Shown one piece after another: positions 206 through 12,703 of a DNA stretch of 20,193 bases. Under the pieces are notes generated by a model. It made no database searches. It was given only the letters and a program-made list of their open reading frames with translations, and was not told the DNA's origin. The stretch lies in the UHGV virus genome UHGV-0040698, one strand, 5' to 3'. This DNA is from a virus. A program made the translations under genes and the position numbers. Within the stretch, counting starts at the first letter, position 1; every line of letters starts with the position of its first letter.

Positions 206-1138
206 ATGACTACTACAGCCACTTCCGCGCCACTAACTAAACAAAAAAAAATGCGTATCGGTTTCTTCCAAAGCTCCTCAGGAACGAAGTCAACTACATC
301 AAATGCACAACTTGCATTTGACAACATGTATACAACCATTGTTACACCTTCGCAAAATTCTTATACCGCTGAGTTTGATAAGAAAAAATTAAAGATTGTA
401 TTATTAGAAAAAGACGCACAGGCGGAGTTCTATTTTGGTTATCTATCATGCTCTCGTGATGGTTTCCACTTACCTTATATTGGTGATGAAAATTGGGATG
501 AGCACAATATTCCGTTAGATGATAAAAAATATATAGTCGAACGCACTTATTTTATTTACTACTATAAGAAAGACATTCTTGTTTTATCTCAAAATCATTT
601 AGGACCTAAAGTTTCCGATTTAGCATTTCTTTTATTCAATTTTTCTGAAGAAAACAAACCTGTAGCGTTTGAGGCAATTTGGAAAAAAGAAAGTGTAAAA
701 GAACTACTTGAAACAGGAAGCACTTTACGTAGCTGTGAAATTACACTCGCCGCTCCACGTAATTTTAGCGCAACGGATTATGACCTTTCGAATTCATTTT
801 CCAAAAGTATGATTGAAATGATGGCTGGGATGGGCGGTTCGCATTTAAAACTATCACTTAGAGGTAGAGCATCGCAACGTAAATTAATCCGTGGTTATCT
901 CAGTGATGAAGTAAAAAGTGGAATAAAGGAATTAATAGAAAAAGTTCCTCACTTATTACGTAAAGCTAATGTCACTGAACCTAAAAATACTCATTCAAGG
1001 AGTCTTCTCAATCAAGTTCTGATCAGTGAAAAAAACATTAACACAAAAGATGGCTACGCAAAAGAAACAGATGTGCGTACTGCCTTGATCAGTGCTAAAA
1101 TTGAACATGGTCAGTATTTAAAGCAATATGAAATCTGA
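206..1138 (+). CDS. Hypothetical 310-aa protein; candidate RexA-like sensor of a two-gene module
   Basis: ATG at 206 with AAGGG upstream; long ORF in visibly AT-rich DNA; immediately followed on the same strand by a small 4-TM membrane protein gene; no catalytic motif recognised. Confidence 0.6.
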   Translation: MTTTATSAPLTKQKKMRIGFFQSSSGTKSTTSNAQLAFDNMYTTIVTPSQNSYTAEFDKKKLKIVLLEKDAQAEFYFGYLSCSRDGFHLPYIGDENWDEHNIPLDDKKYIVERTYFIYYYKKDILVLSQNHLGPKVSDLAFLLFNFSEENKPVAFEAIWKKESVKELLETGSTLRSCEITLAAPRNFSATDYDLSNSFSKSMIEMMAGMGGSHLKLSLRGRASQRKLIRGYLSDEVKSGIKELIEKVPHLLRKANVTEPKNTHSRSLLNQVLISEKNINTKDGYAKETDVRTALISAKIEHGQYLKQYEI

Positions 1139-7152: not shown

Positions 7153-7712
7153 GCGTTAGTTTCTCCACAGTCACGACACGCCACGGCGCCCGGAGCTGCA
7201 CACTCGCGGGCGTCACTACTTTCTGAAACGCAAAAGATTTTGTAGACCAGTGCTGCATGCTCCTGCAGCTTCGAAATTGAGAGGTACAGCTCATCGTTAA
7301 TTGCTGTCTTCTCATGCGGTTCCACTACACCGTCTTCAATTGCTGAACGAATCTGTTTTGAATAACTGCCGATCTGTTCAATGACTTCCAGCAGGCGTTG
7401 GTTGATATCGGCGTTGTCCACATCCTCGACGTCAGGAAGAGACACAAAGACGCCATTTGCAGACTGCGCCACAGCATCAGCAATGAAGTGAGTGCCACCA
7501 GCACGCTGTAAAACCATTGCCCATCCCAGCGGGAAAATCTGATCGCCATCTGCACGAAGGCGGTTGAATAAAGCGTTTTCTGTTACATCGAGCCAGTCAG
7601 CCGCTTCAGCGTAACCACCCGGCAACGCCGCGATAGTTTTTCTGACAGCTTTCACGTACCACTCAGGCTGTTTTTCTATTTTCCAGTGATGCTTACCCAC
7701 GGTTAGCCTCAT
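7149..7712 (-). CDS. CII-like / YdaT-like phage regulatory protein
   Basis: Position directly downstream of the Cro-like gene as in Rac ydaS-ydaT; 187-aa product; weak SD; family assignment by context and size only. Confidence 0.45.
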
Positions 7713-7743
7713 CGTTCTGTGGTTAAAAATTGAAAGTGTTCTG

Positions 7744-7944
7744 CTAATCTTTCGGATAGATATCCGGTCTTAAGTCAGATTTCGTAATTGCACCTGACGT
7801 GCATTGCTCAAGTTTTTTAGCCAGCACAAAACTGGCTTTTTTATAGCCATTGAAAACCAGCCGTAAGTAGCCAGGTGTTGAGCCAACTTTTCCGGCCAAC
7901 TCGCCCTGCTGTTCTTTGGTTAAAGAGTCCCAATACGCTTTCAT
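7744..7944 (-). CDS. Cro-like HTH regulator (YdaS-like)
   Basis: 66-aa product MKAYWDSLTKEQQGELAGKVGSTPGYLRLV...SDLRPDIYP; GGAGGT SD 9 nt before ATG 7944; divergent from the cI-like gene; the track's 167-aa version lacks an SD. Confidence 0.7.
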   Translation of the reverse strand: MKAYWDSLTKEQQGELAGKVGSTPGYLRLVFNGYKKASFVLAKKLEQCTSGAITKSDLRPDIYPKD

Positions 7945-8034
7945 ACAATATGTACCTCCGGTGTACATATTACATGATTGAAATGAACCTTCAAGATACT
8001 TGTACCTTAACGGTACAAGGGTTTTAATTTCGTT
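7945..8034. promoter_or_regulatory. Immunity-region intergenic: two palindromic operators and divergent promoters
   Basis: ATGTAC-N7-GTACAT at 7950-7968 and perfect CTTGTACC-N5-GGTACAAG at 7999-8019; minus-strand promoter TTGAAG-N16-TAATAT for the cro-like gene overlaps the first operator. Confidence 0.6.
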
Positions 8035-8709
8035 ATGAAAACAATCCATGACATCCGGCGGTCTAACGCCAGAAAACTGAGAGATGGTGTTGGCGGGAAT
8101 TCTTCCTTTGCCACTATGATTGATCGCGAGCCAACCCAGACCAGCAGGTTTATGGGAGATGGTGCTACTAAAAATATCGGTGACAGCATGGCACGACACA
8201 TCGAAAAATGTTTCGACCTGCCTGTCGGATGGCTCGATCAAGAACACCAGACAACGAACATCACAAAAAAACCTGATGTTTCAATCACTAATAAACAAAT
8301 CACATTAGTCCCTGTCATATCATGGGTACAGGCCGGAGCATGGAAAGAAGTTGGATATTCTGAGGTTGATTTGAGCACAGCAGAAACGTATCCCTGCCCT
8401 GTACCCTGTGGGGAAATGACTTATATCTTGCGGGTGATAGGTGATTCAATGATTGATGAGTACCGCCCGGGAGACATGATTTTTGTCGATCCTGAAGTAC
8501 CTGCCTGCCACGGTGACGACGTTATTGCATTGATGCACGATACAGGCGAAACCACCTTCAAAAGGTTGATAGAAGATGGGACACAGCGTTATCTCAAAGC
8601 GTTAAACCCAAACTGGCCTGAGCCTTACATTAAGATCAACGGTAATTGCTCTATAATTGGTACAGTGATTTTCTCAGGAAAACCAAGAAGATACAAAATC
8701 AAAGCCTAA
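8035..8709 (+). CDS. cI-like prophage repressor with S24 (LexA-type) autopeptidase domain
   Basis: C-terminal GDSM...FKRL Ser/Lys dyad spacing typical of S24 peptidases; N-terminal CI-type DNA-binding region; divergent from the cro-like gene. Confidence 0.85.
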   Translation: MKTIHDIRRSNARKLRDGVGGNSSFATMIDREPTQTSRFMGDGATKNIGDSMARHIEKCFDLPVGWLDQEHQTTNITKKPDVSITNKQITLVPVISWVQAGAWKEVGYSEVDLSTAETYPCPVPCGEMTYILRVIGDSMIDEYRPGDMIFVDPEVPACHGDDVIALMHDTGETTFKRLIEDGTQRYLKALNPNWPEPYIKINGNCSIIGTVIFSGKPRRYKIKA

Positions 8710-8718
8710 TCAATGTTT

Positions 8719-8745
8719 ATGAACCTGCTTCGGCAGGTTTTTTTA
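8719..8745 (+). terminator. Rho-independent terminator after the repressor gene
   Basis: GAACCTGC-TTCG-GCAGGTT stem with UUCG tetraloop followed by a 7-T run, 10 nt after the cI-like stop. Confidence 0.7.
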
Positions 8746-8747
8746 TA

Positions 8748-8780
8748 CTTGACAATGTACCTTTGGGATACATAATGTAC
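8748..8780 (+). promoter_or_regulatory. Sigma70-like promoter with embedded ATGTACC operator half-sites
   Basis: TTGACA (8748-8753), 16-nt spacer, CATAAT (8770-8775); ATGTACC occurs in the spacer and over the -10, the same half-site as the cI/cro operators. Confidence 0.6.
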
Positions 8781-8902
8781 CCAAGCGAAACAACGAACAG
8801 GCAGGACGCCCACGAAGTAGCCGCCTGGGGCATATGAAGTCCAGGATGATTCGTTGAGTCATGTTGTGCCACTAGGCACTCATGTTAAAGCAGGTGTATG
8901 AA

Positions 8903-9178
8903 ATGAAAGTCCAGATTTTAAACAATAACTGTGAAGTCGTTTGGTCATACGACATAGCCGCCCCTGTAGATCAGAGCGGCGATAGCTGGACCAATGGGAA
9001 ACATCAGATTATGGCTGGAGTTGTGTTCTCTTTACGCCGTGCTTTGGAACAGGCTGAAGTATTTCCATCAGACCCTGAATGGAAATGGCCTTTTTCTATT
9101 TGTCCAAATTCGGAGAGCACATTTCAGAAAATTGGTCAGAAAGTCGCACTCGAAGAGCATCAGCCAACTGTTTCCTGA
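8903..9178 (+). CDS. Hypothetical small protein (91 aa)
   Basis: AGGTG 8 nt before ATG 8903; first ORF after the repressor-controlled promoter; overlaps the convergent ORF 9096-9341 by 83 nt so one of the two may be spurious. Confidence 0.35.
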   Translation: MKVQILNNNCEVVWSYDIAAPVDQSGDSWTNGKHQIMAGVVFSLRRALEQAEVFPSDPEWKWPFSICPNSESTFQKIGQKVALEEHQPTVS

Positions 9179-9341
9179 TTTTTTCAGGTAACTCGTCGGC
9201 ATCGCAGAAACAACAACGCTCGATCATGTTGAAAGCCGATTCGTAGAACTGTTTCTGCTGAGTGTCGCTGAGACAGGAAAAGAGCGACGTTACGATGATT
9301 TTATTAATTGCATTATCAAGTTCTTTTTCATCAAAAGTCAT
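9096..9341 (-). CDS. Hypothetical small protein (81 aa)
   Basis: AAGGAA SD 7 nt before ATG 9341; helical charged product; antisense to the plus-strand operon. Confidence 0.4.
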   Translation of the reverse strand: MTFDEKELDNAINKIIVTSLFSCLSDTQQKQFYESAFNMIERCCFCDADELPEKIRKQLADALRVRLSDQFSEMCSPNLDK

Positions 9342-9577
9342 TTGATTTTCCTTTTATGTATACGGGCTTAAAAGGATACCACCGAGCCTGAAGTGGTGAA
9401 AAGACAGGCACATAACAGCTAAGTATTTTCAACCAAAGAGAATCCTTAGCGTTGTGGTGAATGCGGCTCAGCGCACGCGGGTTAAGGTTGAGGCTGACAG
9501 TCGACCTTCTGTGGATACCCACCCGTCTGGTGTGCAACCTTCGCCAGGCACCGGGAGGCACCCGGCACCACAACTTT

Positions 9578-9642
9578 ATGCTGTGTGTAGTCCTGGCGGT
9601 ACCAGTTTGTACCCTTGCTTCCGGCTGGTACCGTCCTTTTTA
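9578..9642 (+). ncRNA. DicF-like small RNA candidate with intrinsic terminator
   Basis: CUGGCGGUACCAGUUUGUACCC...CCUUUUU resembles the Qin-prophage DicF core UGGCGGUAUCAGUUUUACUCC...GCCCUUUUU as I recall it; terminal stem CGGUACCAG/CUGGUACCG differs from DicF GGCGG/CCGCC by compensatory changes; sits in a ~440-bp GC-rich noncoding stretch. Confidence 0.45.
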
Positions 9643-9778
9643 CAAAACAGAGAAGAGCATCACCGGACGACGGGCTCATAACCCAATCCATCCGGGCGGC
9701 TGCTACCGCAGGTGTTCTTCTCTGTTTTGTGGAGAAACTAATCGGCCTTGCAGGGTCGATATGATGAGGAGCAGCAAA

Positions 9779-10141
9779 ATGGCTAGCGAACGCAGTACTG
9801 ATGTGCAGGCATTTATCGGGGAGCTGGACGGCGGCGTATTTGAAACCAAAATCGGCGCAGTTCTCAGTGAAGTCGCTTCCGGTGTGATGAACACGAAAAC
9901 CAAAGGTAAGGTCTCACTCAACCTGGAAATCGAACCATTTGATGAGAACCGTGTGAAAATCAAACACAAACTCTCATATGTTCGCCCGACTAACCGCGGG
10001 AAAATTTCCGAAGAAGACACCACCGAAACGCCGATGTATGTCAATCGCGGTGGTCGCCTGACTATTCTGCAGGAAGACCAGGGACAATTACTGACTCTTG
10101 CCGGTGAACCTGACGGAAAACTCCGCGCAGCAGGTCATTAA
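9779..10141 (+). CDS. Hypothetical protein, YfdP-like (120 aa)
   Basis: GAGGAG SD 7 nt before ATG 9779; the track's longer 226-aa ORF is an unsupported upstream extension; first of five genes whose sizes and order match CPS-53 yfdP-T. Confidence 0.6.
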   Translation: MASERSTDVQAFIGELDGGVFETKIGAVLSEVASGVMNTKTKGKVSLNLEIEPFDENRVKIKHKLSYVRPTNRGKISEEDTTETPMYVNRGGRLTILQEDQGQLLTLAGEPDGKLRAAGH

Positions 10142-10206
10142 TATCGTTCTTAATTAACTGATTATTTATCTCATCACTGAATATCTTTATATAGTGAGGA
10201 CTTATT

Positions 10207-11031
10207 ATGTCTCAGAACTTAGACGCAACCGCAATTAATCAAATCCATGCCCTTATTTCTGCTCAGGGTGTTAATGAAATTATCAGTAAGATTGGTGCCG
10301 ATGCTGTGGCATTGCCTGAGAATTTCCGCATTCATGATCTGGAAAAATTTAATTTAAATCGCTTCCGTTTCCGTGGTGCGCTTTCCACTGCCAGCATCGA
10401 TGACTTTACCCGTTATTCTAAAGATCTTGCAGATGAAGGCACCCGCTGCTTTATCGATGCTGATAATATGCGTGCCGTCAGTGTGCTTAACCTGGGTACT
10501 ATTGATGAACCAGGTCACGCAGATAACACCGCCACTCTCAAACTGAAAAAGACAGCACCGTTCTCTGCTCTGTTGTCTGTTAATGGCGAGCGTAACTCCC
10601 AGAAATCACTGGCAGAATGGATTGAAGACTGGGCCGACTACCTTGTGGGCTTTGATGCTAATGGTGACACCATTCAGGCAACAAAAGCGGCTGCGGCGGT
10701 CCGTAAAATCACGATTGAAGCAAACCAGACCGCTGATTTTGAAGATAATGACTTCAGCGGCAAACGCTCCCTGATGGAGTCTGTCGAAGCGAAGACCAAA
10801 GACATTATGCCAGTGGCATTTGAATTTAAATGCATTCCGTTTGAAGGTCTGAAAGAACGTCCGTTTAAATTACGCCTCAGCATTATCACTGGCGATCGTC
10901 CGGTACTGGTTCTGCGCATTATTCAGCTGGAGGCGGTGCAGGAAGAAATGGCTAACGAATTTCGTGATCTGCTTGTTGAGAAATTCAAGGACAGCAAAGT
11001 AGAAACCTTTATTGGTACTTTCACCGCCTGA
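10207..11031 (+). CDS. yfdQ: YfdQ-like prophage protein (274 aa)
   Basis: GAGGA SD; 274 aa, and the following genes of 178, 120 and 101 aa reproduce the K-12 CPS-53 yfdQ-R-S-T sizes and order; no sequence comparison possible here. Confidence 0.6.
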
Positions 11032-11158
11032 TTTCATTACTGCAAATGCCCCTGCGGGGGCATTTATGGAAACGTAATTTACTCAATAATCGCCGGATGG
11101 TGAGGGATTCTTTTTACCAGAATTCAGCGCGGTGCAGCGCATATACGTGGAGAACAAA

Positions 11159-11695
11159 ATGTCATTTATTAAAACTTTTTCCGGGAAGCATTTTTATTAT
11201 GACAGGATAAATAAAGACGACATCGATATTAACGATATCGCGGTTTCCCTTTCAAATATCTGTCGCTTTGCCGGTCATCTTTCGCACTTCTACAGCGTCG
11301 CCCAACATGCGGTTCTTTGCAGCCAGCTGGTGCCGCAGGAATTTGCTTTTGAAGCGTTAATGCATGATGCAACAGAAGCGTATTGCCAGGACATTCCCGC
11401 ACCACTGAAACGCCTTCTTCCTGACTATAAACAAATGGAAGAAAAAATAGACTCCGTAATCCGTGAGAAATACGGATTACCCCCAGTTATGAGTACGCCC
11501 GTGAAATATGCCGATCTCATCATGCTGGCAACCGAACGCCGCGATCTCGGGCTTGATGATGGCTCTTTCTGGCCTGTACTGGAAGGTATCCCGGCAACAG
11601 AGATGTTCAACGTGATTCCACTGGCACCGGGCCATGCCTACGGGATGTTTATGGAACGCTTTAACGAGTTATCGGAGTTACGCAAATGCGCATGA
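11159..11695 (+). CDS. yfdR: HD-domain phosphohydrolase, YfdR-like (178 aa)
   Basis: H...HD...D metal-binding pattern (AGHLSHF...MHDATEAY); GGAGAA SD before ATG 11159 (track start 11132 adds 9 residues). Confidence 0.7.
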   Translation: MSFIKTFSGKHFYYDRINKDDIDINDIAVSLSNICRFAGHLSHFYSVAQHAVLCSQLVPQEFAFEALMHDATEAYCQDIPAPLKRLLPDYKQMEEKIDSVIREKYGLPPVMSTPVKYADLIMLATERRDLGLDDGSFWPVLEGIPATEMFNVIPLAPGHAYGMFMERFNELSELRKCA

Positions 11696-12048
11696 ATGTT
11701 TTCGAAATGGAAGGGTTTCTTCGTGGGAGATGTGTACCGCGAGATCTGAAAGTAAATGAAACAGATGCTGAATACCTGGTGCGTAAATTCGATGCGCTTG
11801 AAGCTAAATGTGCAGCACAGGAAAACAAAGTAATACCAGTGTCAACTGAACTGCCACCAGCAAATGAAAGTGTTTTGTTATTCGATGCTAACGGAGAAGG
11901 CTGGCTAATTGGTTGGCGTTCTCTCTGGTACACCTGGGGACAAAAAGAAACCGGAGAATGGCAGTGGACATTTCAGGTCGGGGACCTTGAAAACGTCAAT
12001 ATCACTCACTGGGCAGTAATGCCAAAAGCACCGGAGGCTGGAGCATAA
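11686..12048 (+). CDS. yfdS: YfdS-like protein (120 aa)
   Basis: GGAG SD; start overlaps the upstream stop; size and position match yfdS. Confidence 0.6.
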   Translation: MRMNVFEMEGFLRGRCVPRDLKVNETDAEYLVRKFDALEAKCAAQENKVIPVSTELPPANESVLLFDANGEGWLIGWRSLWYTWGQKETGEWQWTFQVGDLENVNITHWAVMPKAPEAGA

Positions 12049-12353
12049 TGACCACTTTTACCGACAAAGAACTGATTAAAGAAATTAAAGAGCGTATCAG
12101 CAGCCTTGACGTGCGAGACGATATTGAGCGCCGTGCTTATGAAATCGCACTCCTATCTCTGGAAGTAGAACCAGATGAACGCGAAGCTTATGAATTATTC
12201 ATGGAAAAGCGTTTCGGTGACTTAGTAGATCGTCGGAGAGCAAAAAACGGCAATAACGAATACATGGCATGGGATATGACTCTCGGTTGGATCGTCTGGC
12301 AGCAACGAGCTGGTATCCATTTTTCAACAATGTCACAGCAAGAGGTGAAATAA
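12048..12353 (+). CDS. yfdT: YfdT-like protein (101 aa)
   Basis: TAATG overlap with the upstream stop, GGAGG SD; size and position match yfdT. Confidence 0.6.
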   Translation: MTTFTDKELIKEIKERISSLDVRDDIERRAYEIALLSLEVEPDEREAYELFMEKRFGDLVDRRRAKNGNNEYMAWDMTLGWIVWQQRAGIHFSTMSQQEVK

Positions 12354-12703
12354 TGGAGCCATACAGCCTCACACTCGATGAGGCCTGTCATTTTCTCAAG
12401 ATATCCAGACCGACTGCCATTAACTGGATACGCACAGGGCGTCTTCAGGCAACACGCAAAGATCCCACTAAGAATAAATCTCCTTACCTCACAACACGAC
12501 AAGCCTGCATTGCGGCTCTTCAGTCTCCGCTGCATACTGTCCAGGTGAGTGCGGGTGATGGCATAACAGAGGAAAGAAAATGTCACTCTTCCGCAGAGGT
12601 GAAATATGGTACGCCAGTTTCACATTGCCGAACGGTAAAAGATTTAAACAGTCTCTTGGAACAAAGGACAAAAGGCAGGCGACAGAACTCCATGACAAGC
12701 TAA
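12353..12703 (+). CDS. Excisionase-like (AlpA/Xis-type HTH) protein
   Basis: [28 protein letters not shown] helix-turn-helix of excisionase type; TAATG coupling to the upstream gene; 3' end overlaps the integrase start by 124 nt, so the true C-terminus is uncertain. Confidence 0.5.

Follow-up and report, generated by a model that had tools for sequence, protein, structure and literature searches.

The question raised by this locus is whether the gap that follows the repressor gene of a lambdoid prophage contains a second promoter that is controlled by that repressor. The window, meaning the whole 20,193-nucleotide stretch of viral DNA that was analysed, has a lambdoid gene order, with cro, a CP76-type cII gene and the replication genes on one strand and cI, a terminator, orf33, yfdP/Q/R-like genes, xis and int on the other. 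The region from 7700 to 9800 has 98.8% identity to Shigella phage SfV, and the immunity region also is found in SfIV, cdtI, 2H10, Ayreon and Stx2c-converting phages; at the protein level the cI immunity type is shared by SfV, SfIV, cdtI and Stx2c-converting phages (98.7-100% identity). In the SfV record (U82619), operators are annotated between cro and cI only.

The repressor gene (8035-8709, plus strand) encodes a cI-type protein of 224 aa that is 100% identical to SfIV cI. Its C-terminal part is a Peptidase_S24 domain: residues 93-212 matched Pfam PF00717 (E 1.5e-26), the sequence contains VQAG and GDSM motifs, and a search of the PDB returned the C-terminal domain of lambda cI (E 2e-9). The N-terminal 92 residues (8035-8310) matched no Pfam model, even at E = 10, and gave only a weak PDB match (5d50, 'Repressor', E 0.0018); since the DNA-binding domain is without a Pfam match, its specificity for the dyads described below is read solely from the distribution of the sites. 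The divergent early-right operon begins with a 66-aa cro-like gene (7744-7944, minus strand), which is annotated as cro in SfV and has weak HTH_3/YdaS matches.

A sequence-only reading had proposed a TTGACA-N16-CATAAT promoter behind a cI-like terminator, and both were found as described. The 170-nt gap 3' of cI contains a hairpin, T7, TTGACA, a spacer and CATAAT, in that order. The intrinsic terminator of the cI transcript (8721-8747, plus strand) begins 12 nt past the cI stop codon and consists of a hairpin with a GC-rich 8-bp stem (8721-8740) followed by a T-run (8741-8747); a terminator is annotated here in the SfV and Ayreon records. The candidate early-left promoter, or PL analogue (8749-8776, plus strand), has its -35 hexamer TTGACA at 8749-8754, a spacer of 16 nt and its -10 hexamer CATAAT at 8771-8776, which together agree with the consensus at 11 of 12 positions; transcription is predicted to start near A8783/A8784. 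The Ayreon record (MF807953) contains the same cI, terminator, -35, first operator (OL1, see below) and -10, and places a 'promoter' at the homologous position, although both its 'terminator' and its 'promoter' are annotations only.

The promoter was the top consensus match of its region, and no other site in the 20-kb window reached 11/12. Among dinucleotide-shuffled versions of the window, 35% contained a match of this quality, so the hexamers by themselves are not significant and the case for a promoter at 8749-8776 therefore depends on its context.

That context begins with the two ATGTACC half-sites that the same reading had placed in the spacer and over the -10. Exact copies were present at 8755-8761, adjoining the -35 inside the spacer, and at 8775-8781, overlapping the final two bases of the -10. 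There are four exact copies of ATGTACC in the window compared with 1.79 expected, and three of the four lie within the two regulatory gaps. The half-sites proved to be the left halves of two whole tandem 19-bp operators of the form ATGTACC-N5-GRTACAT. The putative OL1 (8755-8773, ATGTACC TTTGG GATACAT) has one mismatch to the dyad; it takes up the entire spacer and extends over 3 bases into the -10. The putative OL2 (8775-8793, ATGTACC CAAGC GAAACAA) is weaker, with two mismatches, and extends from the last 2 bases of the -10 to approximately +10; its right half is off consensus (GAAACA vs GGTACA). Since the centres of OL1 and OL2 are 20 bp apart, both would lie on one face of the helix.

Operators of the same type were found in the cro-cI gap. 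One (7950-7968, ATGTACC TCCGG TGTACAT) overlaps the -10 of the inferred PR, and the other is a perfect dyad (8000-8018, TTGTACC TTAAC GGTACAA) with no mismatches to TGTACC-N5-GGTACA that falls inside what the SfV record labels a 'putative operator region'. When the window was searched for this dyad with at most two mismatches, five matches were obtained compared with 0.31 expected, and none of 100 shuffles reached five. Four of the five were located in the two regulatory gaps (7951-7967, 8001-8017, 8756-8772 and 8776-8792); the fifth (8400-8416, two mismatches) lies inside cI and was taken as a chance match. The hexamers of the inferred PR, TTGAAG-16-TAATAT (8/12), were read by eye, with the -10 TAATAT at 7967-7972 on the minus strand. 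OL2 occupies the same register on the early-left promoter as the cro-side operator does on this -10 (TAATAT-GTAC...). A third cro-side operator is possible at 7983-8001 (ATGAACC TTCAA GATACTT); this candidate shares 2 nt with the 8000-8018 site and lacks a centre-variable signature.

On the cI side of this gap, cI was observed to have no Shine-Dalgarno sequence. A -10-like TTTAAT (8023-8028) puts the start at the A of the cI ATG (8035), and for this reason the cI maintenance transcript may be leaderless, as in lambda PRM; the -35 that pairs with it, TTGTAC (8000-8005), sits within the perfect-dyad operator.

Substitutions were counted in loci that had been retrieved via the cI protein alone and hence were unselected for the promoter. 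The sample comprised 78 usable loci, with identical cI in all, and gave 29 unique variants of the gap. The ten central N5 columns of the two operators held 39 variant cells out of 290, compared with 7 out of 812 for the 28 half-site columns (odds ratio of 17.9, p = 3e-17), a p-value that overstates independence because the sequences share descent. Among the same 29 variants the -35 columns contained one variant cell (a TTGGCA singleton), the -10 contained one hexamer-disrupting singleton (CATATT), and the cI terminator had no substitutions. The operator centres (8762-8766 and 8782-8786) were the most variable positions of the gap in the identical-cI prophages, in which the flanking non-coding bases showed no variation. 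The variability of the centres suggests either tuning of affinity or a mutational hotspot.

More divergent relatives (cI identity of 74-87%, including Hafnia phage yong2), which were found with a pattern that demanded the half-sites, keep TTGACA, both copies of ATGTACC, GRTACAT and GAAAC, and the central bases of their operators change freely. Half-sites that are kept around free centres are the signature of a dyad operator that is read via its half-sites. All 109 copies of the promoter pattern for which at least 800 nt of upstream sequence was available lay directly 3' of a co-oriented cI homologue (74-100% identity), a linkage that, like the half-site invariance in these copies, is to be read with the fact that the scan itself required the half-sites. 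When the downstream sequence is swapped, the promoter stays with cI and not with orf33; as the sequence past OL2 is exchangeable, cI, the terminator and PL/OL move as one module. The proposal of a second promoter under the same repressor is thus supported, at the level of sequence, by an operator dyad that is common to the cro-cI region and by linkage to cI homologues.

A BLAST search with the gap revealed that homology to phages of unrelated immunity starts abruptly at approximately 8789, a few bases past the predicted start; the phages that share sequence from this point include SfII, ST64B, mEp237, phiNP, YeP2, AH07, SPN3UB, ZF40 and SEN34. Use of the conserved leader that follows (8792-8855, see below) as a position marker yielded 106 distinct upstream sequences from many immunity classes. 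In most of these, a TTGAC-type -35 preceded the leader core by approximately 47-55 nt, and a -10 ended 20-31 nt ahead of the core. The upstream variants carry class-specific flanking repeats, with lambda-like OL sequences in one class. In all nine of the annotated phages, the 70-nt stretch that precedes the leader was enriched in 7-mers from the phage's own cro-cI gap: 4-20 7-mers were shared, compared with means of 0.3-1.3 in control windows from the same locus, and the fraction of control windows that reached the observed count was 0-0.046. Judged from these comparisons, the position of the promoter is conserved across immunity types and the sequence of its operators follows the repressor.

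The first ORF of the operon that the promoter heads is orf33 (8882-9178, plus strand, 98 aa), which corresponds to SfV orf33 and has no family match. An 81-aa ORF with a good ribosome-binding site was observed on the minus strand (9096-9341), antisense to the 3' end of orf33; it also had no family match and may be a convergent moron gene within the early-left operon. Further downstream lies an STnc100-like RNA element (9429-9644, plus strand), the 'sRNA candidate' of the earlier reading, which aligned over its full length with Rfam STnc100 (RF02076) at 39.5 bits and E 1e-6, against a gathering score of 47. According to a 2026 preprint (10.64898/2026.05.13.724894), STnc100 is related to the prophage sRNA PasD. 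Of 121 unique loci, 38 carried the core motif of the element, CACCGGGAGGCACCCGGCACC, on the strand of the leader and 0.4-1.1 kb 3' of it; none had the motif on the upstream side.

The STnc100-like element ends in a strong intrinsic terminator with a 13-bp stem (9595-9642). Beyond it are yfdP-like, yfdQ-like (DUF2303) and yfdR-like (HD) genes, two small ORFs and xis (9779-12703, plus strand, co-oriented), with the SfV integrase gene next. The promoter had been expected to drive an operon that contains both the sRNA and the yfd-like genes. It does head a plus-strand operon, and this part of the claim stands; since the terminator lies between the promoter and the yfd-like genes, expression of the latter from this promoter presumably needs read-through. 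Of 5426 complete E. coli genomes, 391 contained at least 80% of the 8700-9800 region, which includes the promoter, leader, orf33 and STnc100-like element.

The reading that best accounts for these results, to which we assign a probability of about 0.88, is that 8749-8793 is the early-left promoter-operator (PL/OL analogue) of an SfV-type lambdoid prophage. Position, hexamers, operators, operator-immunity covariation and an S24 repressor, that is, each feature of a lambdoid early-left promoter-operator that can be looked for in the DNA, were all found. In the lysogen, we infer that dimers of the cI-type repressor would bind the adjacent 19-bp OL1 and OL2, with OL1 plugging the spacer between -35 and -10 and OL2 lying over the start site and the last bases of the -10, so that RNA polymerase would be excluded from a near-consensus sigma-70 promoter. 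The upstream terminator (8721-8747) would keep cI read-through out of the early-left operon. Upon DNA damage, RecA-stimulated self-cleavage of the S24 repressor would free the promoter, and transcription would proceed from approximately 8783 through the leader RNA, orf33 and the STnc100-like element, and, by read-through of the terminator at 9595-9642, into the yfd-like genes, xis and int. The early-left operon should therefore be off in the lysogen and switched on by induction, as had been predicted. With this promoter, the regulatory map of a common type of prophage immunity becomes complete, a result that is useful but expected; the map marks the expected start of induction-dependent transcription on the yfd/xis/int side.

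A different interpretation is that the promoter serves orf33 either as a lysogen-expressed ('moron'-type) or as a constitutive promoter, with ATGTACC sites that do not effectively repress it. The mosaic, replaceable nature of orf33, which is absent from the Ayreon-type and SfIV-type relatives (62-75% coverage of the region), agrees with this interpretation, as do the strong terminator that lies after orf33 and the weak dyad match of OL2. Operators that sit over the spacer, -10 and start site are nevertheless hard to square with activity under repressor. Furthermore, the equivalent promoter of nine other immunity types bears its own cro-cI dyads, and downstream swaps leave the promoter with cI rather than with orf33; we consider a moron or constitutive promoter to be quite improbable.

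Among the 29 unique variants the hexamers are as conserved as the half-sites, most other immunity classes have a -35/-10 pair that is equally far from the leader, and a co-oriented operon starts here with no other evident promoter. These observations argue against the view that the operators chiefly serve, from a distance, to repress the cro-side promoters by cooperativity or looping and that the hexamers are incidental, which is very improbable even though the hexamer match alone is statistically non-significant and the approximately 800 bp that separate these operators from those of the cro-cI gap are a looping-compatible distance. In lambda, OL assists OR, and looping over some 800 bp is compatible with that system; a looping role and a promoter role are not exclusive. 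It is hardly conceivable that an AT-rich intergenic spacer resembles such an arrangement purely by chance: promoter-like hexamers are indeed common (four matches of at least 9/12 between 7000 and 10500, compared with 4.6 expected), but the dyad enrichment, the conservation pattern, the cI linkage and the cross-immunity covariation contradict this explanation.

If 8749-8793 is an early-left promoter-operator, its transcript would begin with the leader RNA, which matters more than the promoter itself as it bears on how N-less lambdoid phages pass terminators. The leader is a conserved structured RNA of approximately 65 nt (8792-8855, plus strand; 92.6 bits to the leader model, R1) with two helices that are supported by covariation. 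Helix P1 is formed by 8792-8797 and 8850-8855 and starts approximately 9 nt past the predicted start of transcription; helix P2 is formed by 8824-8828 and 8841-8845. Between the strands of P1 lies a 22-nt core, GGCAGGACGCCCACGAAGUAGC, at 8800-8821. The alignment of the leader was gap-free across 101 distinct sequences, in which the core is invariant by construction because it was the search pattern. In P1 and P2, 94.5% of cells were paired compared with 18-44% when the partners were slid, the covariation score was 0.745 compared with no more than 0.168 in the slid controls, and double changes were seen in 10 of the 11 helix pairs.

The exact 22-mer core was found in at least 120 viral contigs and in 92 species-representative genome stretches, nearly all from the Enterobacterales, with a range that includes Escherichia, Xenorhabdus, Yersinia, Pantoea and Erwinia. 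In phages of every immunity type, and irrespective of which genes lie downstream, the element is located directly 3' of the early-left promoter. The invariance of the core across a bacterial order points to a contact with a conserved host machine. Model R1 found one copy in the window, with no putR analogue; a second match (1011-1098, minus strand; 12.1 bits, E 0.28) lies within a plus-strand ORF in AT-rich DNA and was rejected as chance. No Rfam family matched 8786-8863, with gathering thresholds used for the whole window and permissive E-values around the leader. HK022 putL also has no Rfam match, so this absence is no proof of novelty. A text search of the literature for the core sequence returned no paper, and no description of the leader was found.

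SfV, SfII and SfIV are without N (SfIV paper, PMC3851460). Neither an N homologue nor an arginine-rich ORF was found within 1.5 kb downstream in 216 loci, and the leader of the window contains no boxA or nut site; in the lack of both a leader boxA and a downstream N, the locus differs from a lambda-type nutL/N antitermination system. We know of no explanation, outside the HK022 put family, for how early transcription passes terminators in the N-less phages SfV, SfII, SfIV and ST64B. Our leading hypothesis, which we hold at somewhat under even odds, is that the leader is a cis-acting processive antiterminator. More tentatively, it may belong to a class of cis-acting phage RNA that has yet to be described; such an RNA would most plausibly act in processive antitermination without the aid of a protein, with a put-like role in N-less phages of the SfV, ST64B, mEp237 and ZF40 types. 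Alternatives are that another conserved host factor binds the leader, or that the leader is a 5' structure with a ligand-sensing or stabilising role.

The position occupied by the leader is filled differently in some relatives. Ayreon, cdtI and Stx2c phages have the same cI-PL/OL module followed by a different leader with put-like ACGGCG...CAUGCGUCG motifs, which are common to this Ayreon-type leader and to the putL sites of HK022 and HK639; one immunity type thus carries alternative leader RNAs at one place. The joining of put-like leaders to the same module bears on the question of antitermination at the leader position. In SfII, a fragment related to the put-like leader was observed between PL and the SfV-type element (locus L003, approximately 2455-2495). 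In Hafnia phage yong2, which keeps the same operators and promoter, a tRNA-Gly(CCC) gene replaces the conserved RNA in the early-left leader (locus L005, 2680-2753).

Approximately 20 nt past the leader, 61 of the 267 unique loci have a hairpin (AGCGCCC-UACA-GGACGCU) together with a boxA of the rrn type, GCUCUUUAACAA, against a background rate of 0.004 per 200 nt. Loci L056, L048 and L022 are examples, and the arrangement is absent from the window. It could equally indicate that antitermination takes place there or that the leader element itself does something else.

The arrangement had been likened to that of DicA and dicB in the Qin prophage, in which a repressor silences an adjacent or divergent early operon with a small RNA. 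To that extent the two are similar, but the likeness is a loose analogy: the repressor here has a Peptidase_S24 domain, there is no dicB here, and no credible DicF was found (15.7 bits with E 3.2, where the gathering score is 48). DicA, to our knowledge, is without a Peptidase_S24 domain. The presence of this domain means that the repressor should be SOS-inducible, and the S24 autocleavage domain makes lambda PL/OL the closer analogue.

As in lambda, a strong sigma-70 promoter lies downstream of and co-oriented with cI, is overlapped by tandem operators of the type used at OR, is paired with an S24 autocleaving repressor, and heads an operon that leads to recombination, xis and int genes, with a regulatory RNA site, here a putative one, in the first ~100 nt of the transcript. 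The differences are that two operators are recognisable here compared with three in lambda; that the operators here span 19 bp, as 7-bp half-sites on either side of 5 free central bp, and are placed over the spacer and the -10/+1 region and not over the -35; that a terminator, and not rexAB, separates cI from PL; and that both an N gene and a boxA/boxB nut site are lacking. Ayreon, which has the same module, differs in the leader that it carries downstream of OL2 (locus L002, 3100-3200).

HK022 is an N-less lambdoid phage in which a structured put RNA of ~70 nt starts no more than approximately 10 nt from the PL start (PMC9378689), and the HK639 record also annotates putL. The locus studied here resembles both in being N-less and in having a structured RNA that starts close to the PL start, and resembles HK022 in its TGTAC-type operators. 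Unlike put, which has two side-by-side stems, the leader consists of a closing helix around the core and one hairpin. The put RNA promotes the read-through of terminators by way of the zinc-binding domain of the RNA polymerase beta-prime subunit. The leader core had no match in HK022 with up to seven substitutions, and model R1 matched no put site in HK022 or HK639. Homology to put was rejected, as only the short words ACGAAC..GGC and CAGGAUGA are shared; the former falls within helix P1, which differs in sequence between classes. The leader (8792-8855) is not a member of the put family and is regarded as a candidate put-like antiterminator. By analogy, the proper counterpart of the locus is the PL-OL of lambda and HK022, with an N-less layout like that of HK022 PL-putL.
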